Of a DNA stretch of 24,000 nt, positions 1,792-21,969 are shown piece after piece. The notes under the pieces are model-generated. The model worked only from the letters and a program-made list of their open reading frames with translations. It did not search any database and was not told the DNA's origin. The stretch is taken from contig NC_009635.1 of NCBI RefSeq assembly GCF_000017185.1, forward strand, positions 1,177,189 through 1,201,188, given 5' to 3'. Source of the stretch: Methanococcus aeolicus Nankai-3 (GTDB lineage: Archaea > AGJL01 > Methanococci > Methanococcales > Methanococcaceae). Each line of letters starts with the position of its first letter. Positions within the stretch are counted from its first letter, which is position 1. A program made the position numbers and the translations under genes.

Positions 1792-2052
1792 TTAATCTTC
1801 AATAACTGTCCTTTATTTGTCCTATAGTAAAAATTCCCCTGGAATTTTGAGGTCCCCCCGGGATTCAATAATCTCTGATTATTACATATCGTAAAAACTC
1901 CTTCGGAGTTTTGAGAATTATTAAATAAAATCCTTTTAGGATTTTGTACAAAAGCATAGCTTTTGTAAACAAATTTCTTAATTTATTGATAATAGGTTAG
2001 ATTTCAGCTTTTAATCGTAGATGGTTTAGTGAAAAAGACCGAAGATTGACTA
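1789..2052 (+). repeat. Family-1 intergenic element, long form, copy A (TAGT...ACTA ends flanked by TA)
   Basis: About 264 bp, roughly 85% identical by eye to the reverse complement of 3505-3764. Shares termini TAGTnAnnTTCAATAACTGTCC and GTGAAAAAGACCGAAGATTGACTA with copies at 8115 and 13338. Contains five short hairpins: 1830-1848, 1867-1883, 1894-1912, 1927-1945, 1948-1966. Confidence 0.85.
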
Positions 2053-2119
2053 TAGATTAGGAGCTCCTTAAAATAATATAAATAAAAATATAAAAATAGA
2101 GATAACAAAGAATATATAT

Positions 2120-3002: not shown

Positions 3003-3503
3003 TCATTTAAATACGATATTAACATTATTATATATCCCACTAACCCTAACAACAACATATGGAGAAGTAATTATCATATCGGGGTTATTTGGTTGTGTTT
3101 CATTCATATATATAATCAAATTATTGTTATTATCCTTTATTATTTTTGATATTTTAATTTTATAATCACTACTTGGTTTTTTTCCAGCGTAAATGTATAT
3201 TGTAGTTTTATTATATTTATTATCTGCTATTATACTATATGATGGTTTATCATTACCATGAGTTCCAAATTTAACTATATTATACTCAGCAGACATATTG
3301 ACAGAAATGTTATTCGACATATTATTGATAATAATATTATTTTTATTATTATTGTTTATCGTGTTATTTTTTATGTTGTTGGTATTATTGTGATTATTAT
3401 TGATAGTATTGACTTCATCATTAAAATTATCCAAACAACAGGACAAACTCAGAAATAAAATACATATTATCGTTATTATTTTTAATACCATTATATCCCT
3501 CAT
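3003..3503 (-). CDS. Asn-rich secreted or lipoprotein-like protein of unknown function
   Basis: N-terminal hydrophobic signal with LSLSCC (lipobox-like Cys), an Asn-rich low-complexity linker, then a beta-rich C-terminal domain (weak resemblance to PrcB_C-type domains, low confidence). The ATG at 3491 (preceded by GAGGGA) may be the true start. The ATG at 3503 is formed at the junction with repeat copy B. Confidence 0.65.
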   Translation of the reverse strand: MRDIMVLKIITIICILFLSLSCCLDNFNDEVNTINNNHNNTNNIKNNTINNNNKNNIIINNMSNNISVNMSAEYNIVKFGTHGNDKPSYSIIADNKYNKTTIYIYAGKKPSSDYKIKISKIIKDNNNNLIIYMNETQPNNPDMIITSPYVVVRVSGIYNNVNIVFK

Positions 3504-3504
3504 T

Positions 3505-3764
3505 TAGTCAATCTTCGGTCTTTTTCACTAAACCGCTTATGATTAAGCTAAAATCTAACCTATTATCAATAAATTAAGAAATTTGTTTACAAAATCTTCG
3601 ATTTTGTACAAAATCTCGAAGAGATTTTATTTAATAATTCTCAAAATCGCAAAGCGATTTTTACGATATGCAATAATCAGAGATTATTGAATCTCGGGGG
3701 GACCTCAAAATTCCAGAGGAATTTTTACGATATGGCGGATAAGGGACAGTTATTGAACTTACTA
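3505..3764 (-). repeat. Family-1 intergenic element, long form, copy B (inverted relative to copy A)
   Basis: Reverse complement aligns end to end with 1789-2052. Hairpins at 3589-3607, 3610-3628, 3643-3661, 3672-3688 and 3707-3725. ACTA-TA end at 3761-3766. Lies 3 nt from the uppS stop and directly abuts the ATG at 3503. Confidence 0.85.
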
Positions 3765-3769
3765 TATTT

Positions 3770-5647: not shown

Positions 5648-5758
5648 TGGTGTGTGTTTAAAAAGTCAAATTTCATGGATTTATTAAGTCATAGTAATAT
5701 TCGGTCTTTTTCAGGCCATATATGATAAACTCAAATTTTATGTTATTGAATTAAATTA
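5648..5758 (-). repeat. Composite of degenerate repeat fragments (family-2 left end plus a short family-1 copy)
   Basis: 5646-5672 (TA-TGGTGTGTGTTTAAAAAGTCAAATT) matches the family-2 end at 13452-13480. 5692-5715 (TAGTAATATTCGGTCTTTTTCA) matches the family-1 right end in reverse complement. 5742-5758 (GTTATTGAATTAAATTA) resembles the family-1 left end in reverse complement. Boundaries are approximate. Confidence 0.5.
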
Positions 5759-5793
5759 ATAATAATTTAGAGGTAGTTTGATGTAGTTTATAT

Positions 5794-6615: not shown

Positions 6616-6740
6616 AATTCACCCAAATTTAAATTAATATATTATATGTTCAAGAACTATGGTAAATATTCTTTATGTGTTCCAAAATATTAAGTCATAT
6701 TTCGATATTTTCATAAATTACAATAATATATTTATATAAA

Positions 6741-6834
6741 TAGTCCGAAGATTTACCCCGCACGAAACAATGAAATTTCAAAATTTCCTTTGGAAATTTG
6801 ACTTACAATGAACAACTGTTTCGAACACACCAAC
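6741..6834 (-). repeat. Family-2-like intergenic element with central hairpin
   Basis: Right end GTTTCGAACACACC (6819-6832) is the reverse complement of the GGTGTGTTCGAAA end seen at 13456 and 5648. Left end is TAGTCCGAAGATTTAC. The hairpin AAATTTCC-TTT-GGAAATTT at about 6781-6799 sits next to AAGTCAAATT, as in the copy at 13467. Boundaries are uncertain; the element could extend to the ACTA-TA at 6843-6848. Confidence 0.5.
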
Positions 6835-6844
6835 AATATGATAC

Positions 6845-8111: not shown

Positions 8112-8114
8112 ATA

Positions 8115-8242
8115 TGGTAAGTTCAATAACTGTTCCTTATTCGTTCTAAATTAGAACGCATATTTACTATTCATTTTTAGTAATATAATACGGATTTTGG
8201 CTTTAATTAGGCATATTTATGAAAACGACCGATGATTGACTA
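8115..8242 (+). repeat. Family-1 intergenic element, short form, copy C
   Basis: TA-TGGTAAGTTCAATAACTGTTCCTTAT at the left and ATGAAAACGACCGATGATTGACTA-TA at the right. The interior is unrelated to copies A/B but contains the hairpin CGTTCTA-AAT-TAGAACG. Lies between the convergent AAA ATPase and polC genes. Confidence 0.7.
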
Positions 8243-8273
8243 TAAATAAAAAATTATTATATTTTATATTTTA

Positions 8274-13271
<4,998 letters not shown>

Positions 13272-13337
13272 ATATTCACCAAATATATATTTAAAAATAG
13301 TATAGATTATATGATATTAATAATTTTAGGTATATTA

Positions 13338-13451
13338 TAGTAAGTTCAAAAACTGTCCCTTTATTGTTCCAAATAATTAAGTGCAATGAATACATTAATA
13401 AAATATAGTTATTTATATAAATATATGGTGAAACAGTTCGAAGATTGACTA
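13338..13451 (+). repeat. Family-1 intergenic element, short form, copy D
   Basis: TA-TAGTAAGTTCAAAAACTGTCCCTTTAT at the left and GGTGAAACAGTTCGAAGATTGACTA-TA at the right. The interior is AT-rich and unrelated to copies A, B and C. Confidence 0.7.
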
Positions 13452-13453
13452 TA

Positions 13454-13618
13454 TAGTGTGTTCGAAAAGTCAAATTCTTACAGAATTTGAGTTATAATCC
13501 TTCGGATTTTATTCAATTCGTTCTCTATCATCCTATGCTATCTTGCTGTATTTAATATAATATAACAAAATGATAAGGAACATAGAATATATGATGTAAA
13601 GAGTTCTCGAACATACTA
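13454..13618. repeat. Family-2 element with 17-nt terminal inverted repeats
   Basis: Including the TA flanks, the left end TATAGTGTGTTCGAAAA (13452-13468) and the right end TTCTCGAACATACTATA (13604-13620; reverse complement TATAGTATGTTCGAGAA) match at 15 of 17 positions. The core annotated here excludes the TA flanks. Internal hairpins are CAAATTCT-TAC-AGAATTTG and AATCC-TTC-GGATT. Shares the TA at 13452-13453 with copy D. Confidence 0.7.
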
Positions 13619-19204: not shown

Positions 19205-20230
19205 TTATTGTTTTTTTTGTTTTTTGGCAAGATTTTCCAAACTATCAAGTTGTTCTTTTGTTCCAAATGCATATAATATATCATCTGAATCCAGAACAAT
19301 ATCTGCCGGAGGATTTGTTATTAAATTATTTTCTTTCTTAATTCCAATAATTGTAGCACCACTTTTTTGTCGGATATTTGTATTTAATATTGTATTATTG
19401 TGGAGCTCCGAGCCATCTTCAACTATTATTTTTCGTATCTCTAAATCTTCATCATATTCATATTTTGCTATGGACATAAATGTTGAAACAAAATCTAATA
19501 TTCCTGGCTTTACTGCCAATTCAGCCATTCTTAAACCGCCAATTACATAAGGAGAAACAACTTTATCTGCCCCTGCAATAAGAAGTTTATCCATAGCAAC
19601 TTGCTCATCTGCCTTTGCTACAATATATAAATCAGGATTTATTCTTCTTGATGATAATACAATATATACATTATCAGAATCATTTGAAACTGATGAAATA
19701 AGTCCTTTTGCATCATTTATTTTTGCATTATATAATATTTCATCATGAGTGGCATCGCCTACAATATATTTAAAATTAGGATTATTTGATAGTTCGTTCT
19801 CCAATGTATCTATATTATTATCTATCACGACATATTCAATCCCTTCTTTTTCAAATTTATCTACAACAACCCTTCCACTTTTACCATATCCACATATAAT
19901 ATAATGATTTTTTAATTTACTTATTTTTTTATCCATAATTTTCAACTGCTTTGTTTTTTGAAAATAACCCCCAATAAAAAAGTCGGCAAAATTACCGAGA
20001 GTATATAATCCAATACTAACACCTAATAGAACATATATTGCAGTAATAATCTTACCGTTCGAAGTTATTGGAACAAAATCCCCAAAACCAACCGTTGTAA
20101 TTGTGGTTATTGAATAATATATGGCGTCCAATGTATTTAATCCTTCAAAATATGCCATAAGCCCAGCATATGCCATTATTAAACTAAACATTACAAATAT
20201 ACTTATTTTTATTTTATCAACAACATCCAT
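19205..20230 (-). CDS. MthK-like potassium channel (2-TM pore plus RCK/TrkA-N and TrkA-C domains)
   Basis: 341-aa ORF. Selectivity filter TTVGFGD lies between two hydrophobic helices. A Rossmann-type motif IICGYGKSGR is followed by a TrkA-C-like C-terminal domain. Confidence 0.9.
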   Translation of the reverse strand: MDVVDKIKISIFVMFSLIMAYAGLMAYFEGLNTLDAIYYSITTITTVGFGDFVPITSNGKIITAIYVLLGVSIGLYTLGNFADFFIGGYFQKTKQLKIMDKKISKLKNHYIICGYGKSGRVVVDKFEKEGIEYVVIDNNIDTLENELSNNPNFKYIVGDATHDEILYNAKINDAKGLISSVSNDSDNVYIVLSSRRINPDLYIVAKADEQVAMDKLLIAGADKVVSPYVIGGLRMAELAVKPGILDFVSTFMSIAKYEYDEDLEIRKIIVEDGSELHNNTILNTNIRQKSGATIIGIKKENNLITNPPADIVLDSDDILYAFGTKEQLDSLENLAKKQKKQ

Positions 20231-20372
20231 ATAACCACAAATATACTATTAATCTGATATCAATTATATTATTATGCCATACACCAGAGACATTTATCAA
20301 CATTATATTAGATATATTATAAAATATAAATGACCTATATAATATATAATTTATCTATATGAACAGTTGCAA

Positions 20373-21878
20373 ATGCTGAAAAATACCGCGGGCGATATAA
20401 TGGAAATCGGGATATTAGATATAAAAGGAGCTCTACCCTGTTTTGAAAATTTCGGAAATTTACCTACAAAAATAATTGATGAAAATAATGTAAAAATAAT
20501 TAATGACCTTGATATGCTTATAATGCCGGGGGGTAGTTTAGTTGAAAGTGGTTCATTAACAGATGATTTAAAAAAACAAATTATAGAATTTGACAATATT
20601 ATTTTAGGAATATGTAGTGGATTCCAAATACTGTGTGAAAAAATAGATATTGGTAGAAAAAGTCCTGTCCCAATAGTAAAAGAGGGATTAAATTTATTGG
20701 GAGTAGAATTTTCGCCCTTGATATGCACCGATAGAGTAAAATTTAACATAGTTGAAAGCGAAATATTTGAAAATAATAGCGGAACTGGTTTTCATTGCCA
20801 TACATACGGAGATATAAAAATTACAAATAAAAAAACAAAACCATTAACATACTCCTCAATCCAAAAATTGAACTATAAAATGACTGGAGGTAAAGATATA
20901 TTATCAGGAGTATATTGTAATAACATAATTGGAACAATGGTACATAACTTTTTAGATAATAAAAATATACGAGAAAATTTATTTAATTATTTAAAAATAG
21001 ATGAAATAGAACAAAATAACATATTTAAAAAAAATAAAGAAATAAAAAATAAATTAAAGGCAAAATCAATAATATATAATAACAAATATAAAAATGAAAA
21101 TAATAATAACAAAAATACTAATGATAATAAAAACCTAAACAGTAAAAAAGGACTAATATTACTGGCAACTGGCTCAGATAGTGGAAAAACATTTTTAATC
21201 ACCAGCATTGTGTCAAAGCTAAATAAAAAAACATTTGTTGCAAAAATAGGTCCTGATGTGCGAGATATTGTTCCATCACTATATATATTGAGAGAAGAAA
21301 TGACAAAATACAACAGCATAAAAATTGCAGATAGAGGATGGTGTGAAGTTGAGGAATTTATGAACTTTGTAAATAATTCAGACTATGAATATTATATTAT
21401 AGAGGGCGTAATGGGGGCTTTCACAGGAGCATTAAATAAAAAAAATTATAGCGGTGCCGAAATCTCGAAAACATTGGGAGCTCCCACATATATTGTATCG
21501 GCATGTAATAAAAGTGGCATAGAAGGAGCATTTGTAGAAAGTTTGGCATATTATTCATTATTAAAAGAAATGGGTGTAAATGTAAAAGGAATGATATTAA
21601 ATAAAATATATAATTTTGAAATATTTGAAAAAGTAAAAGAAATAGGAGAAAATATAGGATTAGAAGTTATCGGCGTTGGAAAAGCCATACAGAATAAAAG
21701 GGGACTTATGCCAGAAGTTGAAATAGACTATGAAGAATTTTGTAAAAATGCAAATAATATAACTATGGATATAAATATTCCAAAATTGAACATAAATGGA
21801 CATAATAATAGTAATAATAGCAATACTCAAAATTATGATTTTAAACATTATTTAGAAAAATGGAGTAAAAAAATATAA
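20373..21878 (+). CDS. Two-domain CobB/CobQ-like protein with swapped domain order: N-terminal GATase3-type glutamine amidotransferase, C-terminal dethiobiotin-synthetase-like P-loop domain
   Basis: N-terminal LIMPGG...[11 protein letters not shown] (nucleophile Cys) and GFHCHTYG (His). An Asn/Lys-rich linker follows. C-terminal [13 protein letters not shown] (P-loop) and YYIIEGVMG. The start is ambiguous (TTG 20367, ATG 20373, ATG 20400), with no clear SD motif. Confidence 0.8.
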
Positions 21879-21969
21879 CATTGAAAAAATTTAATAAAAT
21901 ATTATTGTAATTAGGGGACTCCCATAAAACAACAGTAGTTAAAACATATAATATAATTTAAGGGATAAT

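Follow-up and report, generated by a model that had tools for sequence, protein, structure and literature searches.

The hairpins at positions 1830-1966 of the window, the 24,000 nt stretch of Methanococcus aeolicus Nankai-3 DNA that was analysed here, make up the cassette array inside a MITE-like mobile element, which is approximately 265 bp long and non-coding. The window holds two long copies of this element, A and B. They differ at the third, fourth and fifth hairpins (H3 to H5) as carriers of different cassette types, and the interpretation of these differences as six pairs of compensatory substitutions that arose in place, as put forward in the initial annotation, is incorrect. For the whole, the best explanation is a MITE-like cassette-array element making a REP/BIME-like, selfish use of hairpins in DNA, and we give this explanation a probability of roughly 0.45.

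The sequences compared with the window came from a second strain, PL15/Hp (CP104873), which has a closed genome and contributed 88.6 kb in three regions, and from a third strain represented by contigs. One locus was reached through a protein query that matched Hef, and further loci through exact look-up of neighbouring proteins. In all, approximately 115 kb from two strains was covered. The sample amounts to approximately 7 % of one genome, and both the counts of copies and the inventory of cassette types are therefore provisional. PL15/Hp and Nankai-3 are 99.3-99.9 % identical in the DNA flanking copies B and C (the latter a short copy of the element), and 98-98.7 % identical in the segment flanking copy A. 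The window is from an AT-rich archaeon and has a G+C content of 29.5 % outside the rRNA operon, which it includes together with the RNase P RNA. The HerA-like protein encoded at 301-1788 is identical to ABR56710.1 of M. aeolicus Nankai-3.

Structure and distribution of the element

Copy A (1787-2054, + strand, 268 nt) was delimited by its termini and by alignment with copy B (3503-3766, - strand), an inverted copy that is 88 % identical to it. It consists of a 5' terminus, the cassettes H1 to H5, a 3' region and a 3' terminus. The terminal inverted repeat (TIR) of A is 15 bp long: when the 5' end, TATAGTTAATCTTCA (1787-1801, + strand), is compared with the 3' end, CGAAGATTGACTATA (2040-2054, + strand), in reverse complement, 13/15 positions agree and 2 are mismatched, and the two ends pair with each other in the predicted fold. 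The same 3' end is shared by B, by two short copies (C and D), by a partial copy, E, and by copies K and M of PL15/Hp. B, C and D have a less complete TIR, made up of TATAGT plus a partial match. The termini of the element can be written as TATAGT(T)AA(TC/G)TTCAATAACTGTCC... and ...GACCGAAGATTGACTATA.

Two short copies, C (8113-8244, + strand) and D (13336-13453, + strand), have the same termini as A and B and no cassette array. C includes a hairpin of its own at 8142-8158, and the PL15/Hp version of D is identical to that of Nankai-3. As both copies retain the two termini without the cassettes, the element can have defined ends in the absence of the hairpins, and end hairpins of the IS200/IS605 type are unlikely. 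A degenerate remnant of a short copy (5691-5762, - strand) adjoins a fragment of a second type of element, family 2 (GTGTGTTCGAAA...). Family-2 elements are also present at 13456-13530 (+ strand) and 6735-6840 (- strand), and the perfect-stem scan detected in them the hairpins of the same module shape that the initial annotation had pointed out, namely TCAAATTCT TAC AGAATTTGA at 13470-13490 and AAATTTCC TTT GGAAATTT at 6781-6799.

Provisionally, at least six copies or remnants sharing the ends were counted in approximately 26 kb of Nankai-3, and approximately 10 in the 88.6 kb of PL15/Hp, with sizes of 51-282 nt. The smallest of these, at the PL15/Hp site corresponding to A, is a 51-nt mini-copy that consists only of the two ends. 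The partial copy E lies just upstream of the window in Nankai-3, and is missing from the same place in PL15/Hp. Copy B extends from the stop codon of a prenyltransferase gene to 12 nt upstream of the start of a gene for a PrcB_C-domain protein; this spacer is 266 nt in Nankai-3 and 9 nt in Methanococcus okinawensis. M. okinawensis has the two genes that lie between A and B at the equivalent position, but lacks the elements. A and B are therefore separate intergenic insertions, and a composite transposon, with A and B flanking the two genes, was rejected. In three independent read sets, the short-read contigs break off at the ends of the element or slightly within them, as expected for a multi-copy repeat. 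Altogether, the element is non-coding and shorter than approximately 300 bp, it has TIRs, its dispersed copies share conserved ends, and both an empty site and insertion polymorphism were observed; these features are consistent with a MITE.

No open reading frame longer than 39 aa is present in the element, and the translation of its stop-free frame has no homologue among 5.8 billion proteins. A coding function was rejected, as the differences between A and B are mostly non-synonymous and the frame has no start codon and no homologues. Stop-free frames were reportedly also noted by Suyama, Lathe and Bork in 2005 in MJRE1-3, palindromic intergenic repeats of Methanocaldococcus jannaschii, a member of the same archaeal order. 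A CRISPR leader, considered in view of the 'long repeat' of M. jannaschii, was rejected, as there is no adjacent repeat-spacer array. With regard to a target-site duplication, the flanks are rich in TA/TATA, the conserved TATAG is part of the element, and no clean pair of filled and empty sites was found within the species.

The gene tables of the sampled loci (approximately 115 kb) list no match to a transposase Pfam family and no other candidate partner enzyme, and no RAYT (Y1 transposase) gene was found in these loci. Searches of metagenomes with two specific terminus patterns gave no match, nor did a search of the PLSDB plasmids, and in viral contigs there was nothing beyond one chance match inside a phage gene. 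The pattern TTCAAWAACTGTYCYTT, in which only 14 bases are specified, retrieved at least 120 chance matches in genome contigs of unrelated bacteria.

Cassette composition of the arrays

A mechanical scan for perfect stems recovered five hairpins in each long copy, all of them with 3-nt loops; they lie at 1830-1848, 1867-1883, 1894-1912, 1927-1945 and 1947-1967 in copy A, and at 3707-3725, 3671-3689, 3643-3661, 3610-3628 and 3588-3608 in copy B. The sequences and positions reported in the initial annotation were all correct, and its statement that each copy has five perfect hairpins was confirmed, with 40 stem pairs and 80/80 cells paired. The alignment of A with B also bears out the six covarying pairs and the lack of one-sided stem changes between these two copies (6 double changes, no single ones). 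For 12 changed stem positions to fall by chance into 6 complementary pairs, the probability is approximately 1e-8 to 1e-10, and the window contains 13 perfect hairpins with 8 bp and a 3-nt loop where 0.9 are expected under a first-order Markov model. The observation in A and B is real, and chance is excluded. RNA folding gives the same helices, with z-scores of -5.2 for A and -2.6 for B. It also predicts a sixth small helix in A (TCCC-CCC-GGGA, approximately 1855-1865); in B, a G-to-A change at the position equivalent to 1861 is uncompensated and disrupts this helix.

The hairpins had been described as sharing one form, a stem between AAAA and TTTT. This is the case for H1, H3 and H4, whereas the stems of H2 (AATAATC/GATTATT) and H5 (ACAAAAGC/GCTTTTGT) do not have this form. 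More generally, the arrays are made up of hairpin cassettes of approximately 27 nt, with constant flanks and, within each class, a few discrete palindromic cores. Class I cassettes have the structure (C)GTAAAAA-N4-N3-N4'-TTTTGAG, with the cores TTCC/GGAA, CTCC/GGAG or TCGC/GCGA, and class II cassettes have the structure GTACAAAA-...-TTTTGTA, with the cores GC/GC, TC/GA or TCCT/AGGA. Approximately 25 cassette instances were found in the approximately 115 kb from the two strains, and the copies vary in the identity, number and order of the cassettes they carry.

In copy A (all + strand), H1 (1827-1851) is a class I cassette, GTAAAAA-TTCC CCT GGAA-TTTTGAG, and its core (T1) is present, loop included, in B and in the copy at the PL15/Hp C site. 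The H2 module (1862-1883; AATAATC TCT GATTATT) belongs to a 36-nt segment that copy B has in Nankai-3 and lacks in PL15/Hp. H3 (1891-1915) is a class I cassette with the core CTCC TTC GGAG (T3A), which recurs, loop included, in the PL15/Hp C-site copy and in a truncated copy elsewhere (locus L137, 1826-1850). H4 (1926-1949) has the core TCCT TTT AGGA (T4A) and H5 (1946-1970), a class II cassette, can be written as GTACAAAA-GC ATA GC-TTTTGTAAAC (T5A); the two are arranged head-to-head around GTAC, and both cores are found, identical and with their loops, in copy K. The array of copy B (3588-3728, - strand) comprises H1 (3704-3728, TTCC), H2 (3671-3689), H3 (3640-3664, TCGC, T3B), H4 (3606-3629, TCTC, T4B) and H5 (3585-3609, AATC GAA GATT, T5B). 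T3B is found, loop included, in B, K and M, and T5B, again with the loop, in B, E and K.

Copy K (locus L138, 8701-8982) is the most informative. It reads 5' end, T4B*, T5A, T4A, T5B, 3' region, h2*, T3B, 3' end, and hence has the A-type and the B-type versions of both H4 and H5 side by side. The A and B versions are therefore different cassettes and not two states of one site. Copy M (locus L144, 16729-16918) contains only h2 and T3B. Comparison of the strains revealed gain or loss of entire blocks. B of PL15/Hp is identical to B of Nankai-3 base-for-base, apart from a clean 36-nt indel that takes out the H2 module, and C of PL15/Hp equals C of Nankai-3 plus 120 nt with four hairpin cassettes, located exactly inside the hairpin of C, CGTTCTA/TAGAACG. 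Since such indels occur in DNA that is approximately 99.9 % identical, the modules turn over much faster than point substitutions accumulate.

These findings bear on the possibility that A and B descend from one array in which H3 to H5 fixed paired substitutions after duplication, i.e. classical compensatory evolution in place. The 6 double and 0 single changes in the A/B alignment are as this predicts, and a stepwise compensation does occur elsewhere (see below). However, it is largely refuted by the co-occurrence of both types in K, and T3B, T5B, T5A and T4A recur base-for-base in unrelated copies with backbones that are only 60-90 % identical. In its 3' part, E shares no more than 76-80 % identity with A and B, yet it includes an exact B-type H5. 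The distribution of the differences between A and B is also unfavourable, as they affect 12/40 positions of the inner stems, 5/15 of the loops, 0/38 of the outer stems and 15/162 of the rest of the element (Fisher p = 2e-5), which amounts to 30 % of core positions as opposed to 9 % in the flanks. The cores thus change 3-4 times faster than their surroundings, and this concentration of the changes is unlike what would be expected of slow compensatory evolution under purifying selection. Together with the block gain and loss, this contradicts a divergence of A and B by six compensated substitutions and makes compensation in place a very improbable explanation. The six 'covarying pairs' are mostly the result of comparing paralogous cassettes at equivalent positions.

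Within one cassette type, the stems are nearly invariant. Three one-sided changes were found, namely C·T in T4B of K, C·A in h2 of K, and T·G instead of C:G in the outer pair of T4A. Hence, the claim that no stem change is uncompensated does not extend beyond A and B, although mismatches are rare. One completed double change was detected, in the h2 series, with CC/GG in the PL15/Hp C-site copy, CC/GA in K and TC/GA in M. This series is a textbook case of compensation with an intermediate.

Conserved pairing and the role of the hairpins

The pairing of the hairpins is strongly conserved across the cassette types, while the sequence is not. Searches that used only the flanks, and were blind to structure, retrieved GTAAAAA-N11-TTTTGAG cores of which 10/10 are perfectly paired and ACAAAA-N7-11-TTTTGT cores of which 7/7 are perfectly paired. 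The other AAAA-N11-TTTT sites in the same DNA are unpaired. When 19 distinct cassettes were aligned on their loops, 149/152 pair cells were Watson-Crick (98 %), with 0 G·U, though this percentage is somewhat inflated by ascertainment bias, as many of the hairpins were first found by the perfect-stem scan, a bias that the flank-only searches offset in part. There are 42 double-change cells among the 19 cassettes, and none of 500 shuffles reached these values; the number of independent core-changing events behind this covariation is small, approximately 8 to 10. One-sided changes to a wobble pair are absent from the 19 cassettes. The proposal in the initial annotation that structure rather than sequence is preserved is upheld by both the flank-only searches and the aligned cells.

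From this pattern, we infer a role of the hairpins at the DNA level and a REP/BIME-like selfish behaviour of the element. The cassettes would persist since folding as a hairpin is required, and the molecule that folds would most likely be single-stranded or cruciform DNA, rather than RNA. DNA is preferred over RNA because pairing is strictly Watson-Crick on both strands without G·U, the loops are 3 nt long and the outer stems would be weak in RNA. All loops are exactly 3 nt, and nearly always closed by C:G. As RNA, single hairpins have predicted energies of -2 to -8 kcal/mol at 37 °C and approximately 0 at 65 °C, and the AT-rich outer stems are weak. The differences between cassette types include symmetric indels, and the copies occupy intergenic regions of every kind, convergent, co-directional and divergent. 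No Rfam 15 family matched at its gathering score, the best sub-threshold hit being csRNA with 24.6 bits against a cut-off of 57 (E = 2.3).

In this mechanism, the hairpin and its conserved GTA-containing foot may be acted on by a DNA enzyme that recognises structure, or by recombination or slippage. Cassettes would propagate, duplicate and be deleted between the identical linkers by slippage or unequal exchange, as occurs in bacterial REP/BIME elements. An occasional one-sided mutation may later be matched on the other arm, in the manner of the h2 series (CC/GG, CC/GA, TC/GA), and effects on transcripts through U4 tracts would be a side effect.

One feature is at odds with a purely symmetric DNA model. 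In 9/11 cassette types, the loops are pyrimidine-only on the top strand of the element, and this strand asymmetry is not explained by any of the models considered; it could point to RNA or to one DNA strand.

A bolder version, which we regard as quite unlikely, is that the cassettes represent the first REP/RAYT-like system to be described in Archaea, in which a structure-specific enzyme would copy, insert and excise single-stranded DNA hairpins with a conserved foot (TCG-NN ... GAG). A metagenome-assembled genome of Methanothermococcus (locus L142, 15093-15403, with the linkers CTCGAC/GTGAGTC) has an array of this design in which the stems are unrelated. If this version is correct, hairpin-cassette arrays would be a lineage-wide, self-propagating feature of the intergenic DNA of Methanococcaceae.

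The initial annotation had suggested that the hairpins are portable bidirectional terminator or RNA-stability cassettes, with a hairpin followed by U4 from either side, in which case the host would benefit and RNA hairpins would be selected. Each cassette does provide T4 on both strands, and the H3-H5 region has four T4 runs in approximately 55 nt. In Methanococcus maripaludis, U4 tracts are the terminator signal, with an efficacy that rises with the number of tracts, and two U4 tracts are the minimum for efficient binding of aCPSF1 in vitro (PMC8716108). By this rule, the arrays should terminate transcription on both strands (PMC8716108). A and C are situated between convergent genes, directly after the stop codons, and the SPRITE repeat of pneumococcus is a precedent for a mobile terminator-like repeat (PMC10969869). 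However, terminators in archaeal Term-seq studies have no preceding hairpin (PMC8716108), and T4 and A4 runs are only slightly denser in A, at 22.6 and 18.8 per kb, than in the background outside the rRNA, at 16.8 and 11.0 per kb. The settings of other copies are also unfavourable: M separates divergent genes and is 68 nt upstream of a start codon, and B, which like D and K is located between co-directional genes, stops 12 nt before a start codon. The MBL-fold gene adjoining A already has T5 runs before the element. The 0 G·U pairs in 152 cells are not what selection on RNA would suggest, and a scan for terminators of the bacterial intrinsic (consensus) type finds none. Overall, we consider a terminator or RNA-stability function unlikely, though some termination by the arrays is plausible as a side effect, given the several T4 runs on both strands.

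At the other extreme, the hairpins might be a neutral by-product of DNA mechanics, selfish or junk palindromes whose arms are kept matched by intrastrand templated repair or template switching, in arrays that lengthen and shorten by slippage, without selection or function. Strict Watson-Crick pairing with no wobble is consistent with this, as are the symmetric indels and substitutions that separate types (T5B versus T4A; in family 2, CT/AG versus TCC/GGA), the 3-4 times faster change of the cores relative to the flanks, the clean cassette indels between strains, and the deletion in C of Nankai-3 exactly at the base of the enclosing stem CGTTCTA/TAGAACG. On the other hand, no change affects the outer A4/T4 stems or the GTA/GAG feet (0/38) while the cores vary, which suggests that the flanks are constrained. 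The cores are GC-enriched (at least 50 % compared with 29 % genome-wide) and have C:G as the closing pair, as would be expected were stability important, and two unrepaired mismatches persist in K. A wholly neutral origin is accordingly given a low probability.

The element often fills intergenic spacers up to the stop and start codons. Together with the changes observed between strains that are approximately 99.9 % identical, this makes it a candidate source of fast regulatory or structural variation. It breaks short-read assemblies of M. aeolicus. Should the cassettes prove to have a dedicated enzyme, Archaea would be added to the range of REP-like biology, and if the arrays terminate transcription via U4, this lineage, whose termination code is known, would have mobile insulators. 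We note that perfect 'covariation' between two copies can stem from the exchange of pre-existing palindromic cassettes and not from selection on RNA. As cassette exchange mimics covariation, comparisons of two copies overstate the evidence for structured RNA.

Comparison with known repeat families

The closest functional analogy is with the REP/BIME elements of Gammaproteobacteria, which are mobilised by RAYTs, Y1 transposases of the IS200/IS605-like type. Like these, the cassettes are short, imperfect palindromes of extragenic DNA; in both, pairing is preserved among the sequence variants, and both form mosaic clusters of hairpins with constant linkers and a cluster size that varies between strains (PMC2817692). 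REP elements exceed 100 copies in a genome, and the approximately 25 cassette instances found here come from approximately 115 kb of two strains. Some neighbouring units are inverted in REP/BIME, as H4 and H5 seem to be here around GTAC. The linkers in the M. aeolicus element are constant (TTTTGAGGTCGTAAAA; TTTTGTACAAAA), and H4/H5 are head-to-head while H1/H3 are direct, though the near-perfect palindromes make orientation hard to define. A conserved foot adjoins the stem in both, GT[AG]G in REP and GTA[A/C] here (PMC2817692). However, the REP head as defined, GT[AG]G, was not found in the cassettes, which begin with (C)GTAA or GTAC at the head, before an A run, and not with GTAG/GTGG (PMC2817692). 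Further differences from REP/BIME are the archaeal host, the AT-rich stems of 8-10 bp with an explicit 3-nt loop, and the location of the arrays inside a MITE backbone bounded by TIRs.

The pneumococcal BOX element, boxA-(boxB)n-boxC, is likewise small, non-coding and mobile, with conserved ends and a variable number of stably folding modules (PMC10969869). In contrast to BOX, where the boxB modules are copies of one sequence, the modules here share flanks and structure and differ in their cores. BOX and SPRITE have no sequence relationship with the M. aeolicus element and belong to another domain of life.

Prokaryotic MITEs, including those of the archaea Sulfolobus and Haloquadratum (PATEs), are also shorter than 300 bp and non-coding, have TIRs and numerous intergenic copies, and vary in presence or absence among relatives (PMC2229807, PMC10969869). 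Methanococcus is not among the archaeal hosts named in a 2024 review of MITEs (PMC10969869). Unlike a typical MITE, the element has an interior that is a cassette array and not the remains of a deleted IS interior. This archaeal repeat combines a MITE backbone with BIME-like arrays of hairpin cassettes whose cores vary, and is as such a new variant on known kinds of repeat.

Stop-free frame across the cassette array

In both long copies of the MITE-like element, a stop-free frame of approximately 65-70 codons spans the array of hairpin cassettes (window 1865-1972, minus strand, in copy A; 3583-3690, plus strand, in copy B). As the differences between A and B within this frame are predominantly non-synonymous and no homologue of the frame was found, it is probably an effect of composition rather than a gene.

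Intervals containing the element

In M. aeolicus, the interval between the HerA-like and MBL-fold genes (window 1792-2119) contains element A only. These genes are separated by three additional genes in M. okinawensis IH1 (locus L125, 11498-13538) and in two MAGs, namely a CxxCxxCC gene, an unknown gene and a DZR zinc-ribbon gene. In the second M. aeolicus strain, PL15/Hp (CP104873), a lone 5' terminus of the element, CTGTTAATCTTCAATAACTGTTCCCC (locus L144, 16700-16728), immediately adjoins the 3' end of a further copy, copy M (L144 16729-16918), an arrangement that suggests a nested or tandem insertion. The L34e-EMC3 interval of this strain (locus L136, 3402-5997) includes approximately 2.1 kb of additional DNA with small ORFs. 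As the corresponding interval in a third M. aeolicus strain (locus L137, 1736-2196) includes a tRNA-Ser(tga) gene together with a truncated element, the additional DNA in PL15/Hp may be an integrated element adjoining a tRNA.

PolD large subunit and candidate replication origin

The gene for the PolD large subunit (window 8274-13271, minus strand) encodes 1665 aa. Its M. okinawensis orthologue, of 1696 aa, has Pfam matches to intein and LAGLIDADG, and an intein is therefore likely in the M. aeolicus protein. Cumulative GC skew reaches its minimum at approximately 20 kb in the window (region 19205-21969), where the TrkA-like gene and the CobQ-like/MCM genes diverge, and window position 20104 maps to coordinate 1 of the PL15/Hp record. 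The replication origin may lie in this neighbourhood.

Hairpins at other Methanococcaceae loci

Further intergenic hairpin pairs that do not lie within the MITE backbone were seen at two PL15/Hp loci. One pair (L144 16027-16069) is flanked by the TFB and Gar1 genes. The other (locus L141, 18441-18632) is in a tandem repeat of 2 x 91 nt, which includes the hairpins ATAAAAGC-TCT-GCTTTTAT and CAATATCC-GAA-GGATATTG, and also the motif GAGGTCGAAA. In M. okinawensis IH1 (L125 5169-5453), a unit containing the hairpin GCATCCTTT-AAA-AAAGGATGC is present three times in tandem with a period of 132 nt. A 310-nt stretch of intergenic sequence in a Methanothermococcus sp. MAG (JASKJQ010000006.1; locus L142, 15093-15403) holds eight perfect hairpins with 3-nt loops, joined by the constant linkers CTCGAC, GTGAGTC and TCGAC. 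In design this Methanothermococcus array matches the cassettes of M. aeolicus, although its stems bear no relation to theirs.
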